Below are positions 2,083 through 27,911 of a DNA stretch of 32,000 nucleotides, one piece after another (the first letter of the stretch is position 1; each line of letters begins with the position of its first letter). The DNA is from Ruminococcus albus 7 = DSM 20455. Its GTDB lineage: Bacteria > Bacillota > Clostridia > Oscillospirales > Ruminococcaceae. Below the pieces are notes generated by a model. It worked only from the letters and a program-made list of their open reading frames with translations. It ran no database searches and had not been told where the DNA came from. The DNA lies in contig NC_014833.1 in assembly GCF_000179635.2 (NCBI RefSeq), positions 780,001 through 812,000 on the forward strand, given 5' to 3'. A program made the translations under genes and the position numbers.

Positions 2083-2095
2083 ATTGGTGAGAATT

Positions 2096-4312
2096 ATGAT
2101 TAAGAAAATAAAAATGCGTAATTGTGCCACATACGATGAAAGTGGCATAGAATTATCTGAGTGTTCAAAGGTTAATTTTGTTTACGGACCTAACGGAAGC
2201 GGAAAATCAACCATTAGCAACTATTTTCAAGATATAACAGAACCCAAATATGCAGATTGTAATGTGGAATGGGAATTCAATCAACCGTTAGAGGTGTTGG
2301 TTTATAACAGACATTTCAAGGAGACAAATTTCTCTGGTGATATAGACGGTATTTTCACACTTGGCAAAGATGTAATTGATGATATGACAGCTATAGATGC
2401 TTTGAAAGCGAGAAAAAAGGGATTATCAGATGAAGTAATAAAGAAAAAGACTATATTACAACAAAAGAAGGAAGAATTAGAGAAACATACACAGGATTTT
2501 CAAGATACGATCTGGAATGTCATATTAAAACAAAACGAAGCAGATTTTCAGGAAGCATTTGCAGGTTATAGAGGAAGTAAGAAAACCTTTTTCAATCAGG
2601 TGATTAAGCGTTACAAAGACGGACATTCTTCTCCACATTCACGAGAGGAGCTTCTGAAAAAAGCGTCAACCCTATTTGCTGAAAAGCCAGAAAAGCACGA
2701 TCTGTTAAAATTAGAATATAAAGATATTCTCGAAGAATTACATTCTGTGGAAACATCTGATCTTTGGGCTAAGCATATTGTTGGAAATCAAGATGTTCCG
2801 ATAGCAGCATTGATTTCTCATTTGGGCAACTCAGACTGGGTGCAAAATGGTATGAAATATTTAGGCGATGATTGTAAATGTCCTTTCTGTCAGCAAGACA
2901 CAATAACTGATGCATTAAAATCACAATTAGAACAATTCTTCAACAGAGAATATGAAACATATTTGCAAACATTATCTATTTTTCAAACCAGTTATGAAGA
3001 GTGCAGTCAGAGAATTTTCAAACTACTGACAGATATACTCACAAACGATTCATTCTTTTCAGTATCACAGGTTGATATTGGAAGAATAAAGACACTTATT
3101 GATGCTTTGCAAGCAAATATCAACGCTAATAAGAGTGAAATAGAGAAAAAAATTAAAGAACCCAGCCGTAGTGTGACGCTAAATCGTACCGATATTGAGT
3201 CCATTCTAAAACTGATTAGTGCAGGAAACGAAACAATTCAGAATCATAACACTATGGTTGATAACTTTGCGACTGAAAAGAATAACCTTATAGCAGAAAT
3301 ATGGACTTTTCTCCTTGATGAGCAAGAAGCACTAATTTCAGGATACTTAAAAGACTATAAAAACTATGATAAAGCAATAACAGGGATTAGTAGTTCCATC
3401 GACAGTTATGAGAAAGAAATCGATGAAAAAGAAAAACAAATAATAGAAAAAAACAAAAACATATCAAGTGTCCAACCCACAGTTGATGAGATAAACAGAT
3501 TGCTTAATGCGTATGGCTTTAATAATTTCAAGATTGTTCCTTCGCCTACAAAAGATAATTGTTATCAGATTCAACGTCCTGACGGATCATTGGCAAGTAA
3601 CACACTGAGTGAAGGCGAAGAAACATTCATATCCTTTTTGTATTTTTTACAACTTACTAAAGGTGCTACAGACATATCAAGAGTTTCTACTGAAAAAATA
3701 TTGATAATAGACGATCCTATTTGTAGCTTGGATAGTACAATTCTATATATTGTCAGTTGCTTGGTGAAATCATTAGTATGTGATGTCAAAAAAGGCGACT
3801 CAAATATAAAACAGATATTCATTTTTACGCATAATGTGTTCTTTCATAAAGAAGCTTCTTTTGTTGACGGTAAAATTGATAACTCAAACGATGTAAGTTA
3901 TTGGATATTGCATAAAGACGAGTCCGTTTCAAGAATAATTACGTATAAGCATAACAATCCCATTCACACTTCGTATGAACTTCTTTGGCGTGAATTAAGA
4001 GATACTAACACTTCATCTTTTATTACAATTCAAAATACAATGCGGCGTATTATTGAAAACTATTTTGGTATGCTTGGAAATCGGAAATACGACCATATAA
4101 AAAAGAAGTTTCAGACTATTGAAGAACAGCAGATCTGTGAATCATTGTTCTATTGGATAAACGATGGTTCACATTCAATTCCTGATGATTTGTACATTGA
4201 TAGTTATTCAGATTCAATTGAAAAATACAAAACAGTTTTCAAAGAAGTGTTTGATATTTCAGGGCATATTGCCCAATATAATATGATGATGGGTATTGAT
4301 GATAAAGCATAA
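2096..4312 (+). CDS. AAA_13-type ABC ATPase, RloC/PrrC-like putative anticodon nuclease
   Basis: Walker A is VYGPNGSGKST. The long helical middle region contains CKCPFCQQ (CxxC at the zinc-hook position). The ABC signature is LSEGEETF, Walker B is ILIIDDPICSLD and the H-loop is FIFTHN. The C-terminal MRRIIENYF...(about 40 aa)...DGSHS resembles the Arg/Glu/His region of PrrC/RloC. ATG 2096 is preferred over TTG 2075. Confidence 0.7.
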   Translation: MIKKIKMRNCATYDESGIELSECSKVNFVYGPNGSGKSTISNYFQDITEPKYADCNVEWEFNQPLEVLVYNRHFKETNFSGDIDGIFTLGKDVIDDMTAIDALKARKKGLSDEVIKKKTILQQKKEELEKHTQDFQDTIWNVILKQNEADFQEAFAGYRGSKKTFFNQVIKRYKDGHSSPHSREELLKKASTLFAEKPEKHDLLKLEYKDILEELHSVETSDLWAKHIVGNQDVPIAALISHLGNSDWVQNGMKYLGDDCKCPFCQQDTITDALKSQLEQFFNREYETYLQTLSIFQTSYEECSQRIFKLLTDILTNDSFFSVSQVDIGRIKTLIDALQANINANKSEIEKKIKEPSRSVTLNRTDIESILKLISAGNETIQNHNTMVDNFATEKNNLIAEIWTFLLDEQEALISGYLKDYKNYDKAITGISSSIDSYEKEIDEKEKQIIEKNKNISSVQPTVDEINRLLNAYGFNNFKIVPSPTKDNCYQIQRPDGSLASNTLSEGEETFISFLYFLQLTKGATDISRVSTEKILIIDDPICSLDSTILYIVSCLVKSLVCDVKKGDSNIKQIFIFTHNVFFHKEASFVDGKIDNSNDVSYWILHKDESVSRIITYKHNNPIHTSYELLWRELRDTNTSSFITIQNTMRRIIENYFGMLGNRKYDHIKKKFQTIEEQQICESLFYWINDGSHSIPDDLYIDSYSDSIEKYKTVFKEVFDISGHIAQYNMMMGIDDKA

Positions 4313-16790: not shown

Positions 16791-18257
16791 ATGAAATATG
16801 AAAATATGCCCCCTTATGCTCCAGTTTTAATGGAATCAACTAGAGCCATTGGTTATAATCTTGAAGCGGCTGTTGCAGATATTGTTGATAATAGCATAGC
16901 AGCTATGGCATCTGAAGTAAATATTTTTTTCTCACCATATGACGCTGTTCCTTATGTTACATTTTTAGATGACGGTGTTGGAATGAATGAGACGGAGATA
17001 AATAATGCAATGCGTTATGGAAGCAAGAGTTCTCTTGATGAACGTGATAGAACTGATCTGGGCAGATTTGGTTTGGGATTAAAAACAGCTTCACTTTCAC
17101 AGTGCCGGTCGTTAACGGTTATTTCAAAGCAGAATACAAGAGTTGAAGGCAGAAAATGGGATCTTGACAGCGTTTATACCAGCGGTGAATGGTCACTTAT
17201 TGTTTTAGATGAATCTGATATTAAATCTATTCCACAGTATAAACAACTGGAATCTTTTTCGCATGGTACTCTTATAATATGGGAAAAACTAGATAGAATG
17301 CTTGAAGGGGCTGCATCTCCCGAAAAGCTGATGAATAAAAAAATAGATGATGTCAGAGAGCATCTTGCCCTTGTTTTTCATCGATATATATCCGGAGAAT
17401 CTGGTATTCAGAAGTTAAAAATTTCGATTAATAATTTTGAGATCAAAGCTAAAGATCCGTTTCTAATAGGCAGAAGTACTGTGTTTCAGCATGATGAAAA
17501 GCTTTCAATTGAAGGTGAACAGGTGCTGGTGTCGGCATATATGCTGCCGCATATCAGCAAAATGACCCGAGCGGAAAAAGAAGCTTTAGGTGGCAGTGAA
17601 GGGTTGACTAAGAACCAGGGTTTCTATGTTTATCGAAATAAACGCTTATTGGTATGGGGAACATGGTTTAGAATGCACAGAAAAGATGAGCTTTCTAAAC
17701 TAGCGAGAATAAGAGTTGATATCCCTAATTCTCTTGATCACCTCTGGACCTTGGATATCAGGAAATCAACTGCAGTTCCACCCGATGTAATAAAACGTAA
17801 TCTGGAAAGAATAGTGGAGAGAATTTCCAATGGAAGCAAACGTGCATGGACTTTTAGAGGCAAACGGGAAATAAGTGATCAGGGGTGTCATCTTTGGAAT
17901 AAGGAACAAGCCCGAGAAGGTGTACAATATGTTCTCAACAGAGATCATGTTTTTTTGAAAATGCTTTCTGAGTCTTTGGATTCCGATCAGAAACACATTT
18001 TATTCAGTTACTTAAAGCTGGTTGAGGGAAACCTTCCTTTGAATCAGCTATATGTTGATCTCAACAATGAAGAAAGAGTCAATGTTCGCAAAGAAAAAGA
18101 TGCAGAAGCTGAGGCAATGGATTTTGCAAAAATAATTCTTGAAAACATAAAAGACAGTTCGTCAAGAAAAGAGCAGATCCAACTTATGCTTCAAACTGAT
18201 CCGTTCTGCAATTATAAAAGTATAGTCGAGATGCTTACTATGGAGTATGAATTATGA
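16791..18257 (+). CDS. GHKL (Bergerat-fold) ATPase, MORC/MutL-like (HATPase_c_3 type)
   Basis: The N box is AVADIVDNSIAA, G1 is FLDDGVGM and G2 is GRFGLGLKTAS. Confidence 0.85.
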   Translation: MKYENMPPYAPVLMESTRAIGYNLEAAVADIVDNSIAAMASEVNIFFSPYDAVPYVTFLDDGVGMNETEINNAMRYGSKSSLDERDRTDLGRFGLGLKTASLSQCRSLTVISKQNTRVEGRKWDLDSVYTSGEWSLIVLDESDIKSIPQYKQLESFSHGTLIIWEKLDRMLEGAASPEKLMNKKIDDVREHLALVFHRYISGESGIQKLKISINNFEIKAKDPFLIGRSTVFQHDEKLSIEGEQVLVSAYMLPHISKMTRAEKEALGGSEGLTKNQGFYVYRNKRLLVWGTWFRMHRKDELSKLARIRVDIPNSLDHLWTLDIRKSTAVPPDVIKRNLERIVERISNGSKRAWTFRGKREISDQGCHLWNKEQAREGVQYVLNRDHVFLKMLSESLDSDQKHILFSYLKLVEGNLPLNQLYVDLNNEERVNVRKEKDAEAEAMDFAKIILENIKDSSSRKEQIQLMLQTDPFCNYKSIVEMLTMEYEL

Positions 18258-21037
18258 ATGATTTTGAAATGTTTGAAAAAATGGTCAGAGTAAAAATACA
18301 GGATTTAGCGCCTAACCGTACACCTATGGAAGAGGAGCTGAAAGAAGCCTGTGAATTCGTAAAGCCTATGTTCCCAAAAATTTCAGAACAGGAAATTGAT
18401 AATCTGATTAAAAAGCTGCAGTCAGTTCTTGATGTTGATATGGATATTGGAGTGTACATTGAAAGCGAGTATGAACCGTGGCTTAAGGATCTGAAAAGAA
18501 AACAAAGCTCAAATCCAGATTATTGGTTTTATTGGAATAGATATGTTAAGTATCTGGAAGAAGATATGCAGCGCCCGTCAACTATTATTGCGTCAATTGA
18601 TGATGTTTCAGACCGAATAGTTGACTTGGCAGGTAATCCGAAGGCGGAAGGAGCACTTCATAGGCGCGGTCTCATAATAGGAGATGTTCAGTCAGGAAAG
18701 ACTGCAAACTATATCGCAATAATGAATAAGGCTGCGGATGTTGGTTATAAGGTTATTGTCTTGCTTACCGGTACTATTGAAAGCCTGCGCCGACAGACAC
18801 AAGAACGTGTTGATGAGGGTTTCATTGGACGAAGCAGTAAAGCTTTTTTGAATAAAAGCCGTCAAACTGTAAAAAAAGGAGTAGGTTTAAAGGATGCAAG
18901 GCATTTTGCTACAGGATTTACTACTGAGTCAAGTGACTTCAGGAAGGCAACTCTGCAAAGCATGAATGTAAGCCTGAAGAATATGACAAATGAACCGGTA
19001 GTGTTGGTTTTAAAGAAAAATGCCAGAACACTGACAAATCTTATTGATTGGCTTGGAGATAACAAATCTGCCAGCGGTAAGATTGATCTTCCTTTACTGC
19101 TGATTGATGATGAGGCAGATAATGCTTCAATCAACACTAAAGATGATAATAGCCCAACGGCAATCAACAAAAATATTAGAACGTTACTTAATATGTTTAC
19201 ATCAAGTTCCTACATTGCAGTAACAGCTACACCGTTTGCTAATATTTTTATTCTGCCGGAAAAAACCGAGGAGATGGAAAACGATGATCTGTTTCCTTCA
19301 AACTATATCTATGCTCTTGATGCACCGACAAATTATATAGGCTGCAATGAGATATTTGGAGATAATGCACCATTTGAAAAATCGCTGATAACCATTGATG
19401 ATGCAGATGCGTGTTTCCCATATAAGCATAAACAGCATATTCCTGTTGAGACACTTCCGGAAAGTTTATATGAAGCTTTGAGATATTTCATTTTAGCAAA
19501 TGTAGTTCGCGACATCAGAGATGATTCTAGTGCACATAGATCTATGCTTGTAAATGTCAGCAGGTTCACTGCTGTTCAGGATAAAGTAAGCGACAGAATT
19601 AAGGAATGGCTGTTTGAAATCAAACGTGATATTCAAAGCTATTGTCAAATGGATGAGGATGCAGCTTGTCAGAATCCTAATATAAGCAAATTGCGTGATA
19701 TGTGGTATAAATCTGATTATCCATTCTTTAATAATACATCTATTCCTTGGAACAGGGTTCAGAAGGAATTTCTTATGGCTGCTGCACAAATAGAGGTTCG
19801 TACTATAAATCAAAGAAGCAGCAGCAAGATACTTGATTATGCAGAATATGATGACAGCGGATTGAGAGTTATTGCTGTCGGAGGACTCAGTTTATCAAGA
19901 GGATTGACTTTAGAAGGACTTATGGTAAGCTATTTCCACCGTAACAGCCAAATGTATGATACTCTCATGCAAATGGGGCGTTGGTTTGGTTATAGAGAAG
20001 GGTATAAAGACTTGTTCCGTATATGGATGCCTGATGATGCGATTGGTTGGTATTCGCACATCACAAGTGCATCAAATGAACTGCGTGAAGAGATACTCCG
20101 TATGAACAGAATAGGTGCGGAACCAAAGGATTTCGGATTAAAGGTTCGTGCTCATCCGACTACCCTTATCATTACCGCTAAGAATAAAATGAAGCATTCT
20201 GAAAAAGTGGAAAGATGGATTACACTTGACGGAGAATTCTTTGAGACTCCAAGATTCCAGCCAAGCATCGAAGTGATCAGGAACAATAGAAAAGTAACAG
20301 ATGAAATTGTCCAAAAGATAATTACAAAATGTGGAGAACCTGTTGATTCTGGAAATCAGCCGCTGTTTTGGAATAATGTTCCGTCTGAAATCATCTGTGA
20401 GTTTTTAAGAAGATATAATTCTCATCCGATGAACATGGAGGCAAATGGCAACACATTAATAAAGTATATTAATGCAAACTCTCAATTCAGCACATGGGAT
20501 GTTCTTGTTACTACTAATAAAAATACAAAAGAATCACATAAAATATGTACTTGTTCTATTCATCCGACAAAGCGTCCGTTTGCAGACAAGCCTGTTAAGT
20601 ACAGTGCATACGGCACTAAATTGAGAATAGGAACAATGGGCTTGACGAAGCATGGTTTAAGTGAAAGTGAACTTAAAAAAGCAGAAGTGGAATTCAGAGA
20701 ACTGAAACGTTCTGAATACGAGAAAAAATATGGCAAAGATGCAAAAGACAAGCTTAGCTCTATGAATTTCCCAGACAGAGCATATCTGATTAAAGGCAGA
20801 CATCCTATTTTGGTAATACATTATCTTGTACCTGATTTGGAGAAAAGCACTAAGATATTAGGTTTCGATATGGATAAAGATCTGCTTGTTGGATATGGAA
20901 TGGGTTTTCCGAGATCTGCTGGGTCCGAGCCAACTTCTGCTGTTTATTACCTGAACCTTGTAGAGCAGCGTAAATACATGGATGTGGATGATGAAACGGA
21001 GGAGGATCAGTTTGATGACGACGACGGAGATTTCTGA
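18254..21037 (+). CDS. Z1-domain SF2-like ATPase
   Basis: Walker A is GDVQSGKT (nt 18680-18703) and the Walker B/DEAD-like box is LLLIDDEADNAS. VTATPFAN and QMGRWFGYR (motif VI-like) follow. An ATGA start/stop overlap links it to the GHKL gene. Confidence 0.8.
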   Translation: MNDFEMFEKMVRVKIQDLAPNRTPMEEELKEACEFVKPMFPKISEQEIDNLIKKLQSVLDVDMDIGVYIESEYEPWLKDLKRKQSSNPDYWFYWNRYVKYLEEDMQRPSTIIASIDDVSDRIVDLAGNPKAEGALHRRGLIIGDVQSGKTANYIAIMNKAADVGYKVIVLLTGTIESLRRQTQERVDEGFIGRSSKAFLNKSRQTVKKGVGLKDARHFATGFTTESSDFRKATLQSMNVSLKNMTNEPVVLVLKKNARTLTNLIDWLGDNKSASGKIDLPLLLIDDEADNASINTKDDNSPTAINKNIRTLLNMFTSSSYIAVTATPFANIFILPEKTEEMENDDLFPSNYIYALDAPTNYIGCNEIFGDNAPFEKSLITIDDADACFPYKHKQHIPVETLPESLYEALRYFILANVVRDIRDDSSAHRSMLVNVSRFTAVQDKVSDRIKEWLFEIKRDIQSYCQMDEDAACQNPNISKLRDMWYKSDYPFFNNTSIPWNRVQKEFLMAAAQIEVRTINQRSSSKILDYAEYDDSGLRVIAVGGLSLSRGLTLEGLMVSYFHRNSQMYDTLMQMGRWFGYREGYKDLFRIWMPDDAIGWYSHITSASNELREEILRMNRIGAEPKDFGLKVRAHPTTLIITAKNKMKHSEKVERWITLDGEFFETPRFQPSIEVIRNNRKVTDEIVQKIITKCGEPVDSGNQPLFWNNVPSEIICEFLRRYNSHPMNMEANGNTLIKYINANSQFSTWDVLVTTNKNTKESHKICTCSIHPTKRPFADKPVKYSAYGTKLRIGTMGLTKHGLSESELKKAEVEFRELKRSEYEKKYGKDAKDKLSSMNFPDRAYLIKGRHPILVIHYLVPDLEKSTKILGFDMDKDLLVGYGMGFPRSAGSEPTSAVYYLNLVEQRKYMDVDDETEEDQFDDDDGDF

Positions 21038-21950
21038 TCTTTGGAAAGTAATTAGTGTTAATACTGGAGTTACTACCGCAAGGCGAATTGATGCTGAGCA
21101 TCCTTTGGATTTTTTTGCATCATATGACGAAGAAAACAGAATGCAGCTTCTGCTGATATCGGATATCCTTCCGGTCCTGCCTAATTCCAGCAAACAAATC
21201 TTAGTGCGTGCAAACCCGAGAAATGATGGCAAATTTGCAATTTGCTTTTCACTTACTGATTCTGCTTTGAAGGAGCTGTTTTTTTCACTAACTTGGGATA
21301 TAATGAATTGTACTTATGATATCTCTGATCGTCATGTCGGAATTAATAAAGCTGTAAGCAGATTCAAAAAATGGCAAAAGATGTTTGCTGCTTCAAAGGA
21401 TAAGATGTCAAGTACTCAAGTCAAGGGATTGATTGGAGAACTCATTTTACTTAGGGATATATGTATTGATAAATATGGCGTAAAGAAAGCTATTGAGGGC
21501 TGGGTTGGTCCGCTTGGAACTGATCAGGATTTTCAGTTCGATGATACGTGGTATGAAGCGAAAGCAGTGTCTGCCAGCATGGATAAAGTTAACATTTCAT
21601 CTTTTGAACAGTTTGAAAGTGACAAGGACGGTTTTTTGATTGTTAACAGAATTGAAAATACATCACCTTTAGATCCGGATAGTTTTACACTTAAAACGTT
21701 AACTCAAAGAATATATGATATAATTAGTAACGATGCCGATCTTAAGTCATTATTCCATATGCGTCTTATATTGTATGGATATAATGAAACAGATGATCAC
21801 TATGATGAAAGTTATAAACTCATAGCTACAGAAAAGTATTTGGTTGACGAAGCTTTTCCCAAAATAATAAGAAGCAAATTGGATGCATCAATCTGCGATG
21901 GAAGCTATGAGATAAGTATTCCAGCAATACAAGGCTGGAGAATCGTATGA
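21015..21950 (+). CDS. PD-(D/E)xK nuclease-fold protein (DUF4420-like)
   Basis: GLIGELILL...DQDFQFDDTWYEAKAV is a D...ExK-type core. GGAGGAGGA lies 7 nt upstream of ATG 21015. The gene overlaps the last 23 nt of the Z1 gene. Confidence 0.6.
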   Translation: MTTTEISDLWKVISVNTGVTTARRIDAEHPLDFFASYDEENRMQLLLISDILPVLPNSSKQILVRANPRNDGKFAICFSLTDSALKELFFSLTWDIMNCTYDISDRHVGINKAVSRFKKWQKMFAASKDKMSSTQVKGLIGELILLRDICIDKYGVKKAIEGWVGPLGTDQDFQFDDTWYEAKAVSASMDKVNISSFEQFESDKDGFLIVNRIENTSPLDPDSFTLKTLTQRIYDIISNDADLKSLFHMRLILYGYNETDDHYDESYKLIATEKYLVDEAFPKIIRSKLDASICDGSYEISIPAIQGWRIV

Positions 21951-21976
21951 TATATTAATCAGCAGGGAGTGATAAT

Positions 21977-24088
21977 ATGCAGAGCTTTGAAGAATACCGT
22001 AAGGAGTTTCTTGAAGATGCCAGATCTACAGAAGAGAGTGAAGCCATAGGTACAGTTGCCAGCTTTGTTAAGATATGTGCGCTGAAACTCTTTGAAGGTG
22101 ATGTAATTCCGGAATATAATCCCTGCTATTATAGTGGCTATGGATATAGAAATGCCATAGTTAATGTTGATGGTTATTCATATGATGAACATGACGGATC
22201 TTTTTATCTTCTCACGGCTTTGTTCTCGGGCAGTGAGCAGTCAGAAACTCTTTTGGGAAGTGATGCTAAAACCGCTCTTGACCGATGCAGAGCTTTTGCT
22301 TCAAACTCAATTGAACATGAGCTTGCAGATAAAATTGAAATAAGTACAGATGCTTATGATCTTGCTTCATACATACAGGAACAGGCAAAATATGTATCAA
22401 GATTTGTCATTGTTTTGCTGACAGATAAATCTTTGAGTGCTAGGGCAGTATTGACAGATAATTCTGATGGTAAAAAGAAAAAAAGCAAACGCAAAGGTGT
22501 ATTGGATGCAGAGCCTATATGTGATATTGATGTTGAATACCGCATTTGGGATATGGAAAGATTTTATCGTCTTTTTTCTGCAAGCGAAGGCCGTGAAGAA
22601 ATAGAAATTGATTTTAATGACTACCTTGAGGGTGGTATTCCCTGTCTGTCAGCTAATGCCGGAGACAGTGAAGACTGCAAGAGCTATTTATGTACTGTAC
22701 CGGGCGATGTAATTGCTGATCTGTACGATCAGTATGGAAGCAGGCTTCTTGAAGGAAATGTCAGATCGTTTTTAGGTAAAAGAGGTGTAAATAAAAACAT
22801 AAGAAATACTGTATTAAATGAACCAGAAAGGTTTTTTGTATATAACAATGGGCTTGCAGCGACTGCTGTTGAGGCTGATGTAGAAAATGGGAAACTGTTA
22901 AGAGCAAAAGATCTTCAGATAGTAAATGGAGGGCAAACAACAGCTACACTGTTTTCAGCAAGGAAAACCAGCGGAGCGGATCTGTCTAAGGTTTCTGTAT
23001 TAATGAAATTAACACAGGTTAATCCTGAATCGGCTGCAGAAATTGTCCCGCTAATTTCAAGAAGTGCCAATAGTCAGAATAAGGTTAATCCGGCTGATTT
23101 CTTTTCCACTCATGAATACCATATTAGACTCGAACAAATTTCCAGAAGAAAATTTGCTCCTGCAAAAGATGGGGCACAGCATGAGACGCATTGGTTTTAT
23201 GAACGTGCACGAGGTCAGTATATACAAGCAACAATGAATATGACAAAAGCTGAAGAACGAAAATTTGCAGCTCAGAATCCGAAGGATCAGATAATTACTA
23301 AAACAGACCTCGCTAAAGTACTGAATTCATGGAAAGGATTTCCACATATCGTCAGCAAGGGTGCCGAATCCAATTTTTCAGAATTTGCAAAACAAACTGA
23401 AGCCATGTGGGAAACACGCAAGGATGATTTTAATGAGAACTATTTTCAAAATGCTGTGTCAATAACCATAATGTATAGGTCTTTGGATAAACAGATACCG
23501 AAGCAATCTTGGTACGGCGGCGGATATAAAGCAAATATTGTCACATATTCGATTGCTTTGCTTCAATACTTGATAAAAAAATGGTATTCAAAGCAAACGA
23601 TTAATTTACAAAAAATATGGCAAAAACAAAAATGCCCGGATATACTGATGAATCAGCTTTTGGTTATTGCAAAAGCGGTATATTATTCGATTACTTCAGA
23701 TGATCGTCCAGTTCAAAACGTAACCCAATGGTGTAAACAAGAAAAATGCTGGGAAAAGATCAAGACTTTGGAAATAACTCCTGTTGAAGGCTTTAAAACC
23801 CTTCTTCATGGATACGAGGAAACAGAAACGATAAAAAGAGAAGCAAGAGAGATTAGAAAAATAGAAGATACGATCGATGATCAGAAAGCTGTGCTTGATT
23901 TAGGGGAACAGTATTGGATCAGGTTAGACAATTGGCTACGCAAGCATCCTCTTGCCAACAGTTATGAAACAGCTGCACTTCATAAAGCGATGAAGATTTC
24001 ACAAGGTCAGTTTCCAAATGAGAGGCAGTGTAAACTTTTGATGGAATTAAGAAAAAAGGCTGTTGGTGAAGGCTTTTCGCCAAAATAA
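21977..24088 (+). CDS. AIPR (abortive-infection phage-resistance) family protein
   Basis: FFVYNNGLAATA...LQIVNGGQTTATLF is the AIPR signature as I remember it. Confidence 0.75.
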   Translation: MQSFEEYRKEFLEDARSTEESEAIGTVASFVKICALKLFEGDVIPEYNPCYYSGYGYRNAIVNVDGYSYDEHDGSFYLLTALFSGSEQSETLLGSDAKTALDRCRAFASNSIEHELADKIEISTDAYDLASYIQEQAKYVSRFVIVLLTDKSLSARAVLTDNSDGKKKKSKRKGVLDAEPICDIDVEYRIWDMERFYRLFSASEGREEIEIDFNDYLEGGIPCLSANAGDSEDCKSYLCTVPGDVIADLYDQYGSRLLEGNVRSFLGKRGVNKNIRNTVLNEPERFFVYNNGLAATAVEADVENGKLLRAKDLQIVNGGQTTATLFSARKTSGADLSKVSVLMKLTQVNPESAAEIVPLISRSANSQNKVNPADFFSTHEYHIRLEQISRRKFAPAKDGAQHETHWFYERARGQYIQATMNMTKAEERKFAAQNPKDQIITKTDLAKVLNSWKGFPHIVSKGAESNFSEFAKQTEAMWETRKDDFNENYFQNAVSITIMYRSLDKQIPKQSWYGGGYKANIVTYSIALLQYLIKKWYSKQTINLQKIWQKQKCPDILMNQLLVIAKAVYYSITSDDRPVQNVTQWCKQEKCWEKIKTLEITPVEGFKTLLHGYEETETIKREAREIRKIEDTIDDQKAVLDLGEQYWIRLDNWLRKHPLANSYETAALHKAMKISQGQFPNERQCKLLMELRKKAVGEGFSPK

Positions 24089-24117
24089 AAATATATAGTA
24101 TAAAGGTGTAATAATCA

Positions 24118-25749
24118 ATGGAAAAATATAAGGTTGTAGATCTGTTTGCAGGTGCCGGCGGTCTAAGTTTGGGATTTGTTCAAACAAAAAAATATGAAAT
24201 AAAGGTTGCATTTGAAAACAATCCTAATATGCAGAAGACCTATAGAAGGAATCATCCTAAAGTTGATGTCAGGGGGGATGTTTGTGCGGCAGATTACAGC
24301 GAAATAAAAAGAAAATACGGAACGATTGATGTTGTTATTGGCGGACCACCGTGTCAAGGTTTCTCAAATGCAAACAGACAGAAGAACACAGCTGTTAGCC
24401 TTAACAATAAACTGGTCAAGCAGTATGTTCGAGCTGTAATTGAGCTCAGCCCTAATGCATTTATCATGGAAAATGTTAGTATGCTTAAATCTGAGGTACA
24501 TCGTTTTTATTTAGAAAAAGGCGATGAAGAATTAATCAAAGAATATAATATTAAGGTTAAAATGACTCCTCTCAAATTAGTGGATAGTCAATACTGTTTT
24601 GATGGAATTCTGGATGTCATAAATGATCAAAGCAGTATTGAGAAGTTTATTTGGCCGGAACGCTTATATCAAGAAATAAATGTTATATATAAAATAACAT
24701 CAAACCTTTCTAAATTGAAAACAACATTAGATAAACATAAAAATACTTTGCTGAAGCTTATTAATGAATATGAAAAAGCAAACAGCTTGACTGGATATAT
24801 TGCGGAATGTTCAAATAAGGCTTTTGAAACCATACGCAGCTATTATGAAAACAGGATTGATTGTTCTAATATAAAACAAGGAATAGAAAGCGCCATAATG
24901 CTTCAGAGGATGTTGTTTAAATCATTAGAAATAATAAACAATAAGATTCTCGTTGATGAATATGATACTGAAAATGGCATATCAGCCAATATACGATCAA
25001 TGGCTGTACTGGATTACATAAAAGCAATACTTGAATCTCCCAAATATGGATATAAATTAAATAGTAATGTGTTATGTGCTGCTGATTACGGTGCTCCTCA
25101 GAAACGGATGCGATTTGTGATCATGGGAATCAAGTCAAGTATTTCGAGTATACCTACATTTCCAATGCCAAAGTTCGAAGAAGATGAATATAGAACAGTT
25201 AGAGATGCGATTTCGGATATTGAGGATGTTGAGCCTGTAGTAAACATTACTGATGATGTCGGAATAGTATTAGAGAATAAAGATCTTGAAGGATTAGCTA
25301 AAAAACTGAGAGATTCTAAGAAACTATACAATCATATCATAACAGCTACGACAGAAACGGCAATGAAAAGATTCAAAGTTATTGGTCAAGGACAGAATTT
25401 TCATTCATTGTCAGATGATCTTAAATCAAATACCTATACTAATCCCAACAGGACACAGAATACTATATATACAAGGCTTAAATATGACGAACCGTCAGGA
25501 ACAGTAGTGAATGTGAGAAAGTCTATGTGGATTCATCCAACAAAAGATAGGGCATTGAGCATACGAGAGGCTGCAAGACTGCAGACATTTCCTGACAGTT
25601 TTGTCTTTTGCGGATCTAAAGACCAGCAGTATCAGCAAGTCGGCAATGCAGTTCCTCCTATAATGGCAAAAGCGATTGCAATGAAATTAAACAGGATATT
25701 GGAAAAGTCATATGGCAGACAATCACACAAAAGAAATAAGAAGTTATAA
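24118..25749 (+). CDS. dcm: DNA (cytosine-5) methyltransferase with a roughly 165-200 aa insertion between motifs VI and VIII
   Basis: Motif I is DLFAGAGGLSLGF, motif IV is GGPPCQGFS (PPCQ = nt 24346-24357) and motif VI is MENV (aa 117-120). Motif VIII is QKRMRFVIMG (aa 328-337). Motifs IX/X are RLQTFPD and GNAVPP. Confidence 0.9.
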   Translation: MEKYKVVDLFAGAGGLSLGFVQTKKYEIKVAFENNPNMQKTYRRNHPKVDVRGDVCAADYSEIKRKYGTIDVVIGGPPCQGFSNANRQKNTAVSLNNKLVKQYVRAVIELSPNAFIMENVSMLKSEVHRFYLEKGDEELIKEYNIKVKMTPLKLVDSQYCFDGILDVINDQSSIEKFIWPERLYQEINVIYKITSNLSKLKTTLDKHKNTLLKLINEYEKANSLTGYIAECSNKAFETIRSYYENRIDCSNIKQGIESAIMLQRMLFKSLEIINNKILVDEYDTENGISANIRSMAVLDYIKAILESPKYGYKLNSNVLCAADYGAPQKRMRFVIMGIKSSISSIPTFPMPKFEEDEYRTVRDAISDIEDVEPVVNITDDVGIVLENKDLEGLAKKLRDSKKLYNHIITATTETAMKRFKVIGQGQNFHSLSDDLKSNTYTNPNRTQNTIYTRLKYDEPSGTVVNVRKSMWIHPTKDRALSIREAARLQTFPDSFVFCGSKDQQYQQVGNAVPPIMAKAIAMKLNRILEKSYGRQSHKRNKKL

Positions 25750-26131
25750 TATGTCAAGGATCAGATCGGTTAATTCAAAACCCGAGCTCCTTGTAAGAAA
25801 GTATCTATTTTCAAAAGGATTTAGATACGTACTCAATGATAAACGTTATCCTGGAAAGCCGGATATCGTATTGCCAAAATATAAAACAGTTATTTTTGTG
25901 AATGGGTGTTTTTGGCATAAACATGACTGTGGAAGATTTGTTTGGCCAAAATCCAATATAGAATATTGGAGAACAAAAATAACTCGAAATGTTGAGCGCG
26001 ATAATGCTAATTATATAAAACTTTCAGAAATGGGATGGAATGTAATTGTACTGTGGGAGTGCCAGCTTAAGAAAGATACTATGACTAAAACGTTGGATGA
26101 ATTATCATTTCAATTAAAAAAGTCTATTTAA
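25712..26131 (+). CDS. vsr: Very-short-patch repair endonuclease Vsr
   Basis: EIRSYNMSRIRSVNSKPELLVRKYL...PGKPDIVLPKYKTVIFVNGCFWHKH...NIEYWRTKITRNVERD...GWNVIVLWEC. The gene overlaps the dcm 3' end by 38 nt. Confidence 0.85.
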   Translation: MADNHTKEIRSYNMSRIRSVNSKPELLVRKYLFSKGFRYVLNDKRYPGKPDIVLPKYKTVIFVNGCFWHKHDCGRFVWPKSNIEYWRTKITRNVERDNANYIKLSEMGWNVIVLWECQLKKDTMTKTLDELSFQLKKSI

Positions 26132-26231: not shown

Positions 26232-26618
26232 ATGATGCAAACGTTAACTAAAGAACAGTTTATTTCAAAAATATCTGATATCGAAAGAGTATGCCTGGTT
26301 TCGATACATGATGGAAAAGTATATCTTCGGGCAGATATTGAAAAAGGCGGAGACAATGGTCTGCGTATCGAGATGATGGATTTTGAGATGAATACATCGT
26401 ATGGATTTTATGAAGCAAATAGCTTGTGCAGAAGCAATTATTCCGGTGGGATAAGCTTTATTGAATACAGTTCATATGTTGAAGCTGAACATCGTGCTAT
26501 AAACGATTTTCTTGATTTAAATCCTCATTCTGCCTTACTGTATTGTGATGATAATGAGTTGTATGAGCTTACTGATAAGTATCCTGCAGATACTGATTTA
26601 TATGTTGCTGTAAACTGA
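26232..26618 (+). CDS. Acidic hypothetical protein (128 aa; 23 D/E versus 10 K/R)
   Basis: GGAG lies 6 nt upstream of ATG 26232. I recognise no family. Confidence 0.55.
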   Translation: MMQTLTKEQFISKISDIERVCLVSIHDGKVYLRADIEKGGDNGLRIEMMDFEMNTSYGFYEANSLCRSNYSGGISFIEYSSYVEAEHRAINDFLDLNPHSALLYCDDNELYELTDKYPADTDLYVAVN

Positions 26619-26682
26619 TATCATCTGAATTAGCCAACTCTCGCAAATAATGCGACAGTTCATAACTATACCCACAGTTTAC

Positions 26683-26711
26683 TTGACTTTACAAAACAGC
26701 TGTGCTATAAT
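26683..26711 (+). promoter_or_regulatory. Near-consensus sigma-70 promoter upstream of the small ORF and tRNA array
   Basis: TTGACT (26683-26688), a 17-nt spacer, then TGcTATAAT (TATAAT = 26706-26711). Confidence 0.65.
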
Positions 26712-26786
26712 ACAGGTAAAGTCAGAACAGGAACGGCCGAATGACGGCCGCTGTAACAAAAATAATTACGAAAGGAGATACCCGAA

Positions 26787-26906
26787 ATGAACGCATTTGC
26801 TATGTCTTATCTGTATAGCGGAATATTACTGAGCCTCAGCCTCGAACAGGAAGAGACTCTTATTGTGCTGCATACAGAACATAGTGCAAATGATACGGTC
26901 ATTTAG
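26787..26906 (+). CDS. 39-codon Ser/Tyr/Leu-rich small ORF (candidate leader peptide); it falls below the ORF-track length cut-off
   Basis: AAAGGAG (26771-26777) lies 9 nt upstream of ATG 26787, and the stop is TAG 26904-26906. The translation is MNAFAMSYLYSGILLSLSLEQEETLIVLHTEHSANDTVI. Confidence 0.45.
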   Translation: MNAFAMSYLYSGILLSLSLEQEETLIVLHTEHSANDTVI

Positions 26907-26945
26907 GGACTTCGATTCAGTATAGATCCTTGAATAGACATATTG

Positions 26946-26976
26946 CACCGTCTGTATACAGCAGACGGTGTTTTTT
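26946..26976 (+). terminator. Intrinsic terminator immediately upstream of the first tRNA
   Basis: CACCGTCTG (26946-26954) and CAGACGGTG (26962-26970) form a perfect 9-bp stem with a 7-nt loop, followed by T6 (26971-26976). Confidence 0.7.
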
Positions 26977-26979
26977 CAT

Positions 26980-27055
26980 GCCCGCATGATGGAATTTTGG
27001 CATACATCCCTGTCTTAGAAACAGGTTTTTGCGAGTTCGAATCTCGCTGCGGGTA
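26980..27055 (+). tRNA. tRNA with anticodon UAG (Leu by anticodon) but a 5-nt variable loop and an atypical D arm
   Basis: Acceptor is GCCCGCA/TGCGGGT. The anticodon arm is CCTGT-CTTAGAA-ACAGG, the variable loop is TTTTT and the T arm is GCGAG-TTCGAAT-CTCGC. The discriminator is A and no CCA is encoded. The D region is 19 nt with only a 3-4 bp stem. Confidence 0.55.
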
Positions 27056-27061
27056 CTATAT

Positions 27062-27134
27062 GCTCTCGTAGCCCAACGGCAGAGGCAGCGGACTTAAAAT
27101 CCGTTTATTATGAGTTCGAATCTCATCGGGAGCA
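27062..27134 (+). tRNA. tRNA with anticodon UAA (Leu by anticodon) but class-I architecture (5-nt variable loop)
   Basis: Acceptor is GCTCTCG/CGGGAGC (one G:U pair) and the D arm is GCCC-AACGGCAG-AGGC. The anticodon arm is GCGGA-CTTAAAA-TCCGT, the variable loop is TTATT and the T arm is ATGAG-TTCGAAT-CTCAT. The discriminator is A and no CCA is encoded. Confidence 0.7.
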
Positions 27135-27176
27135 CTGACTTTGTCAAGGATCATATACTGAAAGGAGATGTTTACG

Positions 27177-27401
27177 ATGCCGGTGATCGACGTGAAGGCA
27201 ACAGGCAATAATATCAAGAATATCATCAGGTCTAAGGGCTTTAAAATATCCGATGTACAGGCTCGATGCGGTTTCAATACACCGCAGGCTATCTTCAAGT
27301 GGATGCGCGGAGACGCTGTTCCCACTATCGACAACCTGATAATACTGGCGGATATGTTTGATACACCGATAGATAAAATAATAATCGTCACCCGAATATG
27401 A
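27177..27401 (+). CDS. XRE-family helix-turn-helix protein (about 74 aa) embedded in the tRNA array
   Basis: IKNIIRSKGFKISDVQARCGFNTPQAIFKWMRGDAVPTIDNLIILADMFDTPIDKII has an HTH_3-like pattern. AAAGGAG lies 9 nt upstream of ATG 27177. Confidence 0.7.
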   Translation: MPVIDVKATGNNIKNIIRSKGFKISDVQARCGFNTPQAIFKWMRGDAVPTIDNLIILADMFDTPIDKIIIVTRI

Positions 27402-27413
27402 GTGACGATATAT

Positions 27414-27500
27414 GGGTAAGTGCGCCGAATTGGTGAAGGCAGCGGACTGTAAATCCGTGACATGGAAACGCTGTAGGTTCGAGTCCTACCTTACCCACCA
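27414..27500 (+). tRNA. tRNA-Tyr (GUA), class II, CCA encoded
   Basis: Acceptor GGGTAAG/CTTACCC is perfect. The anticodon arm is GCGGA-CTGTAAA-TCCGT, the variable region is about 14 nt and the T arm is GTAGG-TTCGAGT-CCTAC. The gene ends in ACCA. Confidence 0.85.
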
Positions 27501-27503
27501 TAT

Positions 27504-27601
27504 GGCGGATTCGTCTAACAGGTCATGGACACAGCACTTGCAGGCAAGCGCTTGGGCTTTCAATCTCTAAATAGTGGGTTCGATCCCCCTATCCGTCACC
27601 A
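27504..27601 (+). ncRNA. 98-nt tRNA-like gene with no canonical anticodon arm
   Basis: Acceptor is GGCGGAT/ATCCGTC (one G:U pair) with ACCA encoded. The D arm is GTCTA-ACAGGTCA-TGGAC and the T arm is GTGGG-TTCGATC-CCCCT (one mismatch). Between them lie the hairpin GCACTTG-CAGG-CAAGCGC and a weak 5-bp stem TTGGG/TCTAA closing the 9-nt loop CTTTCAATC. Confidence 0.4.
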
Positions 27602-27603
27602 AT

Positions 27604-27695
27604 GGTCGCATAAGCCTAACTGGTAAGGCAGCAGTTTGCTAAACTGTGAGTAATCGGAACATTCCGATGTCTGAGTTCAAGTCTCAGTGCGGCCG
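27604..27695 (+). tRNA. tRNA-Ser (GCU), class II
   Basis: Acceptor is GGTCGCA/TGCGGCC (one G:U pair) and the D arm is AGCC..GGC. The anticodon arm is GCAGT-TTGCTAA-ACTGT. The long variable arm has stem ATCGGA/TCCGAT and the T arm is CTGAG-TTCAAGT-CTCAG. The discriminator is G. Confidence 0.85.
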
Positions 27696-27778
27696 CTAAA
27701 AGCTATAAACCAATATCAAAAGCGAATAGTTAAAGAAAAATGGTTGTTTTGGCAACTGAAATCAGAGTGGGTTTGACA

Positions 27779-27832
27779 GAAAATACATTTCCAGCTAATC
27801 ACATTTGCAAACATAGTTGGAAATACATTTCC
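27779..27832. promoter_or_regulatory. Two copies of a 14-bp palindromic operator-like site (GGAAAT-AC-ATTTCC)
   Basis: 27819-27832 is GGAAATACATTTCC (perfect 6-bp arms) and 27779-27792 is GAAAATACATTTCC (one mismatch). Each sits in a longer direct repeat AAATACATTTCCARCTA. The second ends 5 nt before the -35 box. Confidence 0.5.
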
Positions 27833-27837
27833 AACTA

Positions 27838-27866
27838 TTGACTTTTTAAAGCAAACATGGTATAAT
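27838..27866 (+). promoter_or_regulatory. Near-consensus promoter of the AAA_14/DUF4143-type ATPase gene
   Basis: TTGACT (27838-27843), a 17-nt spacer, then TGgTATAAT (TATAAT = 27861-27866). Confidence 0.65.
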
Positions 27867-27911
27867 AATTCCAGAAATCCATATAATACATGGCAGAAGG
27901 AGTTGATCACT

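Follow-up and report, generated by a model that had tools for sequence, protein, structure and literature searches.

Leader-peptide attenuation, a textbook mechanism of bacterial gene control, is known to act on amino-acid biosynthesis and on a small number of synthetase or resistance genes. tRNA genes, for their part, are usually regarded as controlled by growth rate and otherwise constitutive. The closest functional precedent for the locus described below is the L-array (trn operon) of Anabaena sp. PCC 7120, which is silent in normal growth, is induced when translation is impaired and is co-regulated with the rtcB RNA ligase gene; it comprises 23 tRNAs for many amino acids, is controlled through promoter repeats and has no matched leader (PMC8421152). 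The terms 'leader', 'attenuat' and 'terminator' are absent from the text of that paper (PMC8421152), and no attenuator or leader peptide ahead of tRNA genes is described in the full-text literature that we searched, the coverage of which is incomplete. Here, we analyse a putative leader-peptide attenuator in front of a small tRNA array in 32,000 nt of Ruminococcus albus 7 = DSM 20455 (assembly GCF_000179635.2, contig NC_014833.1, positions 780,001-812,000, forward strand). This whole stretch is called the window, and the coordinates of locus features are window positions, position 1 being its first letter. Classical attenuator operons (PMC1183508, alongside textbook knowledge) served as the basis of comparison.

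Our analysis indicates that positions 26664-27695 very probably form a single transcription unit under the control of a ribosome-mediated (leader-peptide) transcription attenuator. All elements by which such attenuators are recognized at the sequence level are present: a leader open reading frame (ORF) with a ribosome-binding site (RBS), codons cognate to the product of the operon, which here is tRNA, a terminator, an antiterminator and a helix (1:2) that competes with the latter. An initial annotation, made from the letters of the window, had proposed that a translated leader and a terminator gate a spare tRNA set through ribosome stalling at cognate codons, and this proposal is now supported by the conservation of the arrangement, by the match between codons and anticodons, by the antiterminator and by the position of the sensing block. 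The parts that it had listed were all found where it had placed them. The near-consensus promoter is there and has an extended -10 box (11/12), as are the hairpin in the 5' untranslated region (5' UTR) and the RBS; the 39-codon ORF encodes the peptide that had been given, with 14 Ser, Tyr or Leu codons including 3 AGC, 1 AGT, 2 TAT and 1 TTA. The array genes are closely packed behind the terminator, with the first tRNA starting 3 nt after the T-tract and inter-gene gaps of 3-42 nt, and the anticodons UAG, UAA, GUA and GCU were all found by ARAGORN, UAG at a relaxed threshold. The GC-rich hairpin with its T6 tract turned out to be somewhat longer than the 9 bp first noted, extending over 26945-26971 with 11 pairs, 6 of which are G-C.

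Related loci were ascertained through the helix-turn-helix (HTH) protein encoded within the array. This protein has 303 database relatives, and relatives are encoded at 234 genomic loci (one genome per species in the genomic scan) and 189 viral-contig loci, 80 of each being fetched. The 234 genomic loci belong mainly to rumen Ruminococcus flavefaciens, R. albus and other Oscillospiraceae, with few Lachnospiraceae and Eubacterium. In nearly all of the 80 fetched genomic loci, the HTH gene lies within a highly variable tRNA array, in which short Leu tRNAs (CAG, CAA, UAA, AAG, UAG) often stand ahead of it and mixes of Glu(UUC/CUC), His, Tyr, Ser(GCU), Gln(CUG/UUG), Phe, Cys, Trp and Asp tRNAs behind it. 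In about 75 of the loci fetched, most of them from rumen Ruminococcus, a homologous HTH/tRNA array is preceded by promoter, RBS, small ORF and terminator; a leader with its terminator stands ahead of the HTH gene and array in nearly all of the 80 genomic loci, and the leader module also occurs on phage-classified contigs. Leader and terminator are kept down to 46-60% identity of the HTH protein, the RBS and the ORF are conserved in 56 aligned leaders, and among 75 unique related leaders the promoter matches at least 10 of 12 consensus positions in 53 and the TG of the extended -10 box is present in 65. Several genomes have multiple modules, and loci L054, L057, L058 and L063 (for instance L063 3539-6452) hold two or three complete modules in tandem, each with its own leader composition and tRNA set. 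A copy with 98% identity to the module of R. albus 7 stands behind unrelated genes in another genome, its homology starting at 26664, 19 nt before the -35 box. The exact HTH protein is encoded on other public contigs, including the Ruminococcus metagenome-assembled genome RUI259 with entirely different upstream genes; as homology there starts at 26664 despite the foreign upstream genes, promoter, leader, terminator and array travel as one module.

The helices expected of an attenuator are found in these leaders, including a pairing that is mutually exclusive with the terminator. This antiterminator is formed by 26865-26878 (region 2) and the 5' arm plus loop of the terminator, and it carries compensatory changes. 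In the window, helix 2:3 joins 26866-26878 to 26951-26963 with a duplex energy of -17.1 kcal/mol. Its nine core pairs are formed in 92.9% of the cells of the 56-leader alignment, a value reached by 0 of 500 shuffles, and four pairs have changed in a compensatory manner (24 double-change cells; for example, U-A in 39 sequences and C-G in 13). Moreover, region 2 is the best partner of the 5' half of the terminator in 57 of 67 leaders, with a mean energy of -16.9 kcal/mol as compared with a median of -5.0 for other leader segments; the terminator hairpins themselves average -19.1. The terminator helix (3:4) is paired in 97.6% of the cells of the same alignment. The anti-antiterminator (1:2), joining 26810-26821 to 26868-26878, appears in the minimum free energy (MFE) and centroid structures of the window and was independently predicted by RNAalifold from 18 leaders; 83.6% of its cells are paired and six pairs have changed on both sides, the alignment of region 1 being less secure in divergent leader classes. 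The topology 1:2 / 2:3 / 3:4 is that of trp-type attenuators. The full leader of the window folds at -84.1 kcal/mol (z = -5.95 versus 200 shuffles) into the 1:2 helix and the terminator.

The leader codons match the anticodons of the array. In the window, 8 of the 17 codons of the sensing block, codons 7-23, which contain the Ser/Tyr/Leu run seen in the initial annotation, are cognate to the Leu(UAG/UAA), Tyr(GUA) and Ser(GCU) tRNAs of the array, and three further codons (GAA, GAA and GAG) fit a disrupted tRNA-Glu. In sister loci, the corresponding place in the array is taken by an intact Glu(UUC), and a former Glu tRNA at 27504-27601 thus accounts for the three Glu codons that end the block. 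The enrichment seen in the window by itself is modest, 8 of the 24 codons ahead of region 2 being cognate as compared with 13.4% in the long ORFs of the window (p = 0.01, post hoc). The decisive evidence that the enrichment is more than chance comes from comparison, leader composition tracking the array. Across homologous loci, the codon content of the leader co-varies with the anticodon set. Arrays with Leu, Tyr and Ser (± Glu), the class of the window, have the block SYLYSGILLSLSLEQEE, and those with three to four Leu plus Glu, His and Tyr have NLYSYNELYLSLYLESEE. Glu/His/Tyr/Ser arrays follow the leader YLYSEHYEESFYHESEE with the block VYLYSEHYEESFYHESEE, and Gln/Phe/Tyr/Glu/Ser arrays the block SQYVFEYQQFSFFQYQEES. 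Arrays with Gln, Cys, Phe and Trp have GYQWCFTFGFCFVQQ, and Asp/Gln/Cys/Phe/Trp arrays the leader DYQYQYDFSFSFDWQD with the block DYQYQYDFSFSFDWQDES. Where two or three modules stand in tandem (L054, L057, L063), the leaders differ and each fits its own array.

The match can be expressed in several ways. The mean number of leader residues with and without a matching tRNA is 6.1 versus 2.5 for Leu, 2.4 versus 0.8 for His, 3.7 versus 0.5 for Gln, 1.0 versus 0.19 for Cys, 0.75 versus 0.05 for Trp and 2.5 versus 0.5 for Asp. When arrays were shuffled among leaders, 0 of 10,000 permutations by amino acid and 0 of 5,000 by codon reached the observed match. With the leaders grouped into 17 clusters, a cognate fraction of 0.395 was observed as against 0.252 +/- 0.028 after permutation (0 of 20,000). 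Cognate codons make up 44.4% of the codons in frame, as compared with 12.2% and 12.8% in the two other frames. Ser codons are of the AGY type in 165 of 203 cases in leaders versus 180 of 465 in the genes of the window, and Ser(GCU), the reader of AGY, is the Ser tRNA of nearly all arrays. Finally, the cognate codons are confined to a particular part of the leader. In 55 unique leaders, they account for 35-82% of the codons at each offset from -20 to -4 relative to region 2, and for 50-82% at 15 of these 17; in the first six codons their share is 0-7%, and they are sparse after the block. The 17-codon block stops four codons before region 2; given the usual bacterial footprint, a ribosome stalled there would be just about to reach region 2 with its front edge.

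More distant HTH relatives provide independent replicates. Among the 80 fetched viral-contig loci, 77 have tRNAs nearby. On gut viral contigs (49% HTH identity), the leader SYEYSYEYSEFMSFERSF is followed by HTH, Glu, Phe, Tyr, Glu, Ser and Ser; its terminator and region 2 are unrelated in sequence and show the same complementarity, and Lachnospiraceae leaders have another terminator/region 2 pair again. A viral leader, NKQNKWQELWSNLYLL, with a terminator precedes Gln, Lys, Asn, four Leu and Trp in an array that lacks any HTH gene, and another, LSSSYVLYLSLLL, also with a terminator, precedes Tyr, four Leu and two Ser, the HTH gene being located only further downstream. In locus L092 (3641-6690), on a phage-like IMG/VR contig of 55 kb, attenuator and HTH gene lie in the middle of a cluster of 22 tRNAs, with a homologue of a tail-sheath gene nearby, and only the distal Leu, Leu, Glu, His, Ser, Tyr and Ser genes are behind the terminator. 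These replicates, with unrelated sequences, other tRNAs and, in one case, no HTH gene, indicate that the principle is independent of the HTH family, of particular sequences and of particular amino acids.

As to the direction and kinetics of the switch, we infer the following course of events. RNA polymerase would start at the strong promoter and transcribe the 39-codon leader, in which most of codons 7-23 correspond to tRNAs of the array itself (Leu, Tyr, Ser and, ancestrally, Glu). With an adequate supply of these tRNAs, the ribosome would pass the block and region 2, or region 2 would stay paired or pair again with region 1; the terminator (26945-26971 and T6) would then form, and transcription would end 3 nt ahead of the first tRNA. 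If one of the tRNAs became scarce, a ribosome stalled in the block would cover region 1, not region 2, which could then capture the emerging segment 26951-26963, allowing the polymerase to read into the tRNAs and the HTH gene. Such a circuit would be self-limiting, the new tRNAs relieving the stall and shutting the circuit off by negative feedback.

Several observations weigh against an attenuator of this kind. When a ribosome footprint of 28 nt is masked, equilibrium folding keeps the terminator at almost every codon position in the window, so that the switch would have to be kinetic, as in trp; since the terminator persisted, masked equilibrium folding was abandoned as a model of the switch and replaced by the covariation and best-partner analyses. 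The antiterminator of the window has a C.A mismatch that is absent from relatives, and its best-partner energy ranks among the weakest of the leaders. In the leader class of the window, the stop codon lies 26 nt beyond region 2; a terminating ribosome would thus not itself cover region 2, and the OFF state would need 1:2 re-pairing. In addition, the content of leader and array matches imperfectly, the leader of the window holding Glu and His codons while its array has no intact Glu or His tRNA, and the anticodon calls are ARAGORN predictions interpreted with standard wobble rules. Lastly, the loci ascertained through the HTH protein are phylogenetically related, a dependence that the permutations reduce without removing.

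If the locus is an attenuator, one may ask what makes the ribosome stall. We tentatively suggest that the trigger could be the destruction of particular tRNAs by nucleases directed at them, during conflict between phage and host or between bacteria. This trigger is favoured because modules are found within defence islands as well as on phage contigs, because their tRNA species are of the kinds that such enzymes attack (PMC10264068, PMC11464382, PMC13096335, plus general knowledge), because the array tRNAs diverge strongly in sequence from a housekeeping isoacceptor in the same locus, and because an RNA ligase gene follows four arrays on the same strand. This gene (Pfam PHA02142 OB-fold and RNA_ligase) is located at L082 4345-5394, L071 4778-5818, L079 4345-5382 and L081 4657-5697, and it starts 25-135 nt past the last array gene, suggesting that it is probably co-transcribed behind the attenuator. 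The flanks of the modules are otherwise variable (260 ORFs in 216 clusters), with genes for integrases, methylases, AbiE, Schlafen-like helicases, GNAT enzymes, dockerin and glycosidases, and they contain no conserved protein partner, the RNA ligase alone recurring, at four loci. It is conceivable, if still tentative, that the modules are portable, self-programming sensors of tRNA loss in bacteria and phages, which would replace tRNAs destroyed by anticodon nucleases or other tRNA-targeting toxins only while these are missing, with the co-induced HTH protein and, in some loci, the RNA ligase perhaps coupling them to a wider tRNA-damage response.

The same attenuator might also meter codon demand: a flood of phage or mobile-element mRNAs rich in these codons would make the matching tRNAs limiting, the leader would stall and the array would be induced. 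Codon compensation is the classical explanation of phage tRNAs (PMC10264068), and the presence of the module inside large tRNA clusters on phage-classified contigs, one of them with a tail-sheath gene nearby, would fit it. However, many copies are chromosomal and located among defence and toxin-type genes, and both the co-oriented RNA ligase behind four arrays and the strong dissimilarity of array tRNAs to the housekeeping isoacceptor of the same locus argue against codon demand, though none of this is decisive; we regard codon demand as possible but rather doubtful. That the leader senses amino-acid starvation through uncharged tRNA, the HTH regulator being the real output and the tRNAs passengers, appears unlikely. 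Leader composition follows the tRNA set, which varies among loci with nearly identical HTH proteins; two viral arrays have a matched leader directly before the tRNAs, one of them without any HTH gene; and extra tRNA would be no cure for amino-acid starvation. Classical attenuators do respond to the charging level, and no gene past the terminator is more constant than the HTH gene, which directly follows the terminator in many loci, but this constancy is built into a set of loci selected through the HTH protein.

Two further explanations would dispense with a sensing ribosome altogether, and we consider both very improbable. Some leader segments are highly conserved at the nucleotide level, as would be expected if the leader RNA were a translation-independent switch that binds tRNA directly, in the manner of a T-box, with the ORF being incidental. 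However, the RBS and the ATG are conserved, cognate triplets are enriched in the reading frame only (44% versus 12-13%), the block ends at ribosome-footprint distance from region 2, and cmscan of 26500-27900 with all Rfam families (E <= 1) gave no match to T-box features (Stem I specifier loop, T-box sequence) nor, the tRNA genes apart, to another family. Alternatively, there might be no regulation at all, the ORF encoding a small, possibly membrane-active peptide (residues 3-19 are hydrophobic) and lying, with its own terminator, ahead of the array by chance, and the tRNAs being transcribed by leaky read-through or from an internal promoter. The modest enrichment in the window is in line with such an absence of regulation, and so is a promoter-like match within the HTH gene (27358-27385), which qualifies the earlier statement that the array leaves no room for another promoter. 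This match is weak, with 10/12 consensus positions and no TG, and is not conserved in relatives; it was therefore taken as a chance match. Moreover, the peptide is not conserved as a protein across leader classes while its match to the array is, the alternative helices co-vary, and the first tRNA starts only 3 nt behind the T-tract.

The features of the module and of its surroundings are listed in Table 1.

Table 1. Features of the putative attenuator module, its tRNA array and the neighbouring genes in the window
Feature	Position	Strand	Evidence or remark
Left edge of module	26664-26682	+	Edge of homology with locus L002/L010, whose upstream genes differ
Sigma-70-type promoter: TTGACT (26683-26688), 17-nt spacer, TGcTATAAT (extended -10)	26683-26711	+	Consensus scan, 11/12
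5'-proximal stem-loop of leader transcript	26727-26754	+	Folding; relatives have a hairpin of other sequence in the same place
Shine-Dalgarno sequence AAAGGAG of leader ORF	26771-26777	+	GAAAGGAG conserved in leader alignment
Leader ORF, 39 codons, MNAFAMSYLYSGILLSLSLEQEETLIVLHTEHSANDTVI	26787-26906	+	Translation; annotated as gene on public contigs
Sensing block, codons 7-23, SYLYSGILLSLSLEQEE	26805-26855	+	Codon-anticodon match; positional profile across leaders
Region 1, UCUGUAUAGCGG, predicted anti-antiterminator strand, 5' end of block	26810-26821	+	MFE, centroid, RNAalifold, pair counts
Region 2, GUGCUGCAUACAGA, codons V-L-H-T-E	26865-26878	+	Conserved; complementary to region 1 and to region 3
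Intrinsic terminator: 11-bp stem 26945-26955 / 26961-26971, then T6 26971-26976	26945-26976	+	Hairpin scan
Region 3, strand pairing with region 2: terminator 5' arm, loop, first 3'-arm bases	26951-26963	+	Duplex and covariation
tRNA, anticodon UAG (Leu codons CUA/CUG), A73, 76 nt, no long variable arm	26980-27055	+	Rfam tRNA, 51.6 bits; ARAGORN, relaxed threshold
tRNA, anticodon UAA (Leu codons UUA/UUG), A73, 73 nt, no long variable arm	27062-27134	+	Rfam, 61.4 bits; ARAGORN
XRE-family HTH protein gene, 74 aa, own RBS	27177-27401	+	Pfam HTH_3
tRNA-Tyr(GUA), long variable arm, encoded CCA	27414-27500	+	Rfam, 57.9 bits (match 27414-27497); ARAGORN
Disrupted tRNA-Glu(UUC), 21-nt insertion	27504-27601	+	Rfam, 21.3 bits (27504-27598), under gathering score; aligned to intact sister-locus Glu(UUC)
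tRNA-Ser(GCU), class II, reads AGC/AGU	27604-27695	+	Rfam, 48.5 bits; ARAGORN
Perfect 12-bp inverted repeat with T-rich tail, overlapping the -35 box of the next promoter (27838-27866)	27813-27838	+	Repeat scan
Type II/IIG-like methylase			Profile match
AAA_13 protein, 745 aa, PADLOC candidate family PDC-S06	2075-4312		E = 1e-247; between methylase and Mrr-like nuclease
Mrr-like nuclease			Profile match
AriA/GajA-like ATPase			Profile match
IS66 transposase and integrase			Profile match
MzaB/MzaC/DUF4420/MzaE-type cluster (HATPase_c_3, Z1, DUF4420, AIPR), beside Dcm methylase and Vsr endonuclease	16791-26131		Directly upstream of array module
AAA_14/DUF4143 protein (PDC-S01) and AbiEi/AbiEii	After array		Profile match

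At the upstream end of the module, an element TATACCCACAGTTTAC at 26666-26682 abuts the -35 box; it recurs in divergent modules and sits at the left edge of the mobile module. In the window, the leader promoter is flanked by a perfect 9-bp inverted repeat, TGACTTTAC / GTAAAGTCA at 26684-26692 and 26716-26724, which spans the region from the -35 box to just beyond the likely start site and is missing from sister loci. The hairpin that follows probably stabilises the 5' end of the transcript.

The initial annotation counted five tRNA or tRNA-like genes and an HTH gene. Four of the tRNAs, scoring 48-61 bits, and the HTH_3 gene are indeed present; the fourth tRNA-like gene proved to be disrupted. 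Its insertion of 21 nt forms a hairpin in the 5' strand of the anticodon stem and is kept in three locus variants, in one of which (L010) the anticodon has also mutated from TTC to TCG, and the gene is probably non-functional. Bacterial tRNA-Leu normally has a long variable arm. The predicted 'Leu' tRNAs of the related arrays (CAG, CAA, UAA, AAG, UAG) are, without exception, 73-78 nt long with A73 and no such arm, and the two in the window (76 and 73 nt) are no different. The coincidence noted earlier with the three bacterial class-II tRNA families consequently does not hold structurally, and class-II tRNA was rejected as an organising principle, the Leu tRNAs being structurally of type I and other arrays containing Glu, His, Gln, Phe, Cys, Trp, Asp, Lys and Asn tRNAs. 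With four intact tRNAs and a disrupted one, the array falls below the definition of a long tRNA array (at least 20 tRNA genes at two or more per kb; PMC4758250, PMC8421152); related chromosomal arrays have 2-12 tRNAs, and only some viral relatives have more than 20 (22 in L092). Searches of NCBIfam, of PDB sequences and of PADLOC with the HTH protein, the conserved protein companion of the module, gave only weak or generic matches.

Some related arrays bear traces of rearrangement. In L019 (976-1010) and L021 (4223-4260), the tRNA-Tyr after the HTH gene ends at 17 nt and is followed by unrelated coding sequence, and the arrays seem to be particularly prone to gaining or losing sequence. In other loci (L011-L031, L063 and others; for example L011 4390-4487), inter-tRNA spacers of 64-117 nt open with the short G+C hairpins GCGCCGAGCGGGCGC, GCAGGGAGCCCCTGC and GGGCAGTGCCC; the spacers are repeated and hold further hairpins, which could be processing or recombination sites.

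Downstream of the array, the 12-bp inverted repeat at 27813-27838 may be an end-of-array terminator and/or an operator. Together with a 40-nt direct repeat (27781-27820 / 27821-27860), it overlaps the -35 box of a near-consensus promoter (27838-27866) that serves the gene for the AAA_14/DUF4143 protein, a PADLOC candidate (PDC-S01). This arrangement (27781-27866) resembles an operator, to which the HTH protein might bind.

As judged from profile matches, the window is a defence and mobile-element island. A search with the DNA of the whole region against phage and plasmid records returned generic tRNA matches only and no homologous module. The initial annotation had also pointed to an RloC-like gene, the AAA_13 gene of Table 1, as a possible source of tRNA cleavage. 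This link is not borne out: the C-terminal half of the protein matches the PrrC anticodon-nuclease model only weakly (E = 4e-11), 22 kb separate its gene from the array, and where the module recurs with 98% identity, the genes ahead of it are unrelated. In the other genomes, this gene shows no linkage to the module, and it was discarded as the anticodon-nuclease partner of the array.

What is new here is that mobile tRNA arrays of one family would be controlled by a leader reporting on the availability of their own tRNAs. Control by attenuation would provide a direct feedback mechanism for tRNA supply and would explain how supernumerary tRNAs can stay silent and yet be useful. The readout would be programmable, with the leader being rewritten as tRNAs come and go, so that a regulatory code co-evolving with its cargo becomes visible. 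If the trigger is tRNA cleavage, the modules would be a missing regulatory link in the conflict between phages and hosts over tRNA, and, if they are indeed sensors of tRNA loss, they would add a new layer to the tRNA-centred arms race and represent the first attenuator known for tRNA genes. The leaders could serve as natural reporters of the depletion of specific tRNAs and be used to predict the tRNA targets of attack in Firmicutes of the rumen and gut.

In its architecture, the module is closest to the attenuators of the amino-acid operons (trp, his, leu, thr, ilv and pheA) and of enterobacterial pheST. In both cases a short promoter-proximal ORF contains a run of regulatory codons, an intrinsic terminator precedes the structural genes, the helices 1:2, 2:3 and 3:4 are mutually exclusive, and stalling at the regulatory codons reads as a shortage of the operon product. 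Unlike these attenuators, which regulate biosynthetic enzymes or a synthetase, the array module would regulate tRNAs and a small HTH protein; its block mixes three to six amino acids and is rewritten at each locus to fit the array; the module is mobile, being found in genomic islands and on phage contigs; and region 2 lies inside the ORF, well ahead of the stop codon. T-box riboswitches also act by transcription antitermination, in response to the state of one particular tRNA, and likewise control genes for translation. However, they bind uncharged tRNA directly and need no translation, in contrast to the array leader with its frame-specific signal.

In its gene content, the module recalls the anti-defence tRNAs of phages, which are likewise extra tRNA genes on mobile elements and include Tyr, Leu, Glu, Gln and Lys tRNAs of the kinds hit by anticodon nucleases, PARIS or Septu (PMC10264068; PMC11464382; PMC13096335). 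Like the present arrays, annotated phage clusters carry short tRNA-Leu genes, as in Gordonia phage Boopy and Lactobacillus phage Semele. The phage studies are concerned with the role of tRNAs in resistance or replacement, and no sensing leader or attenuator is described in the literature searched. With the Anabaena L-array (PMC8421152), finally, the family shares a supernumerary, horizontally spread tRNA set; the L-array is co-regulated with rtcB, and in the present family an RNA ligase gene stands behind four of the arrays.

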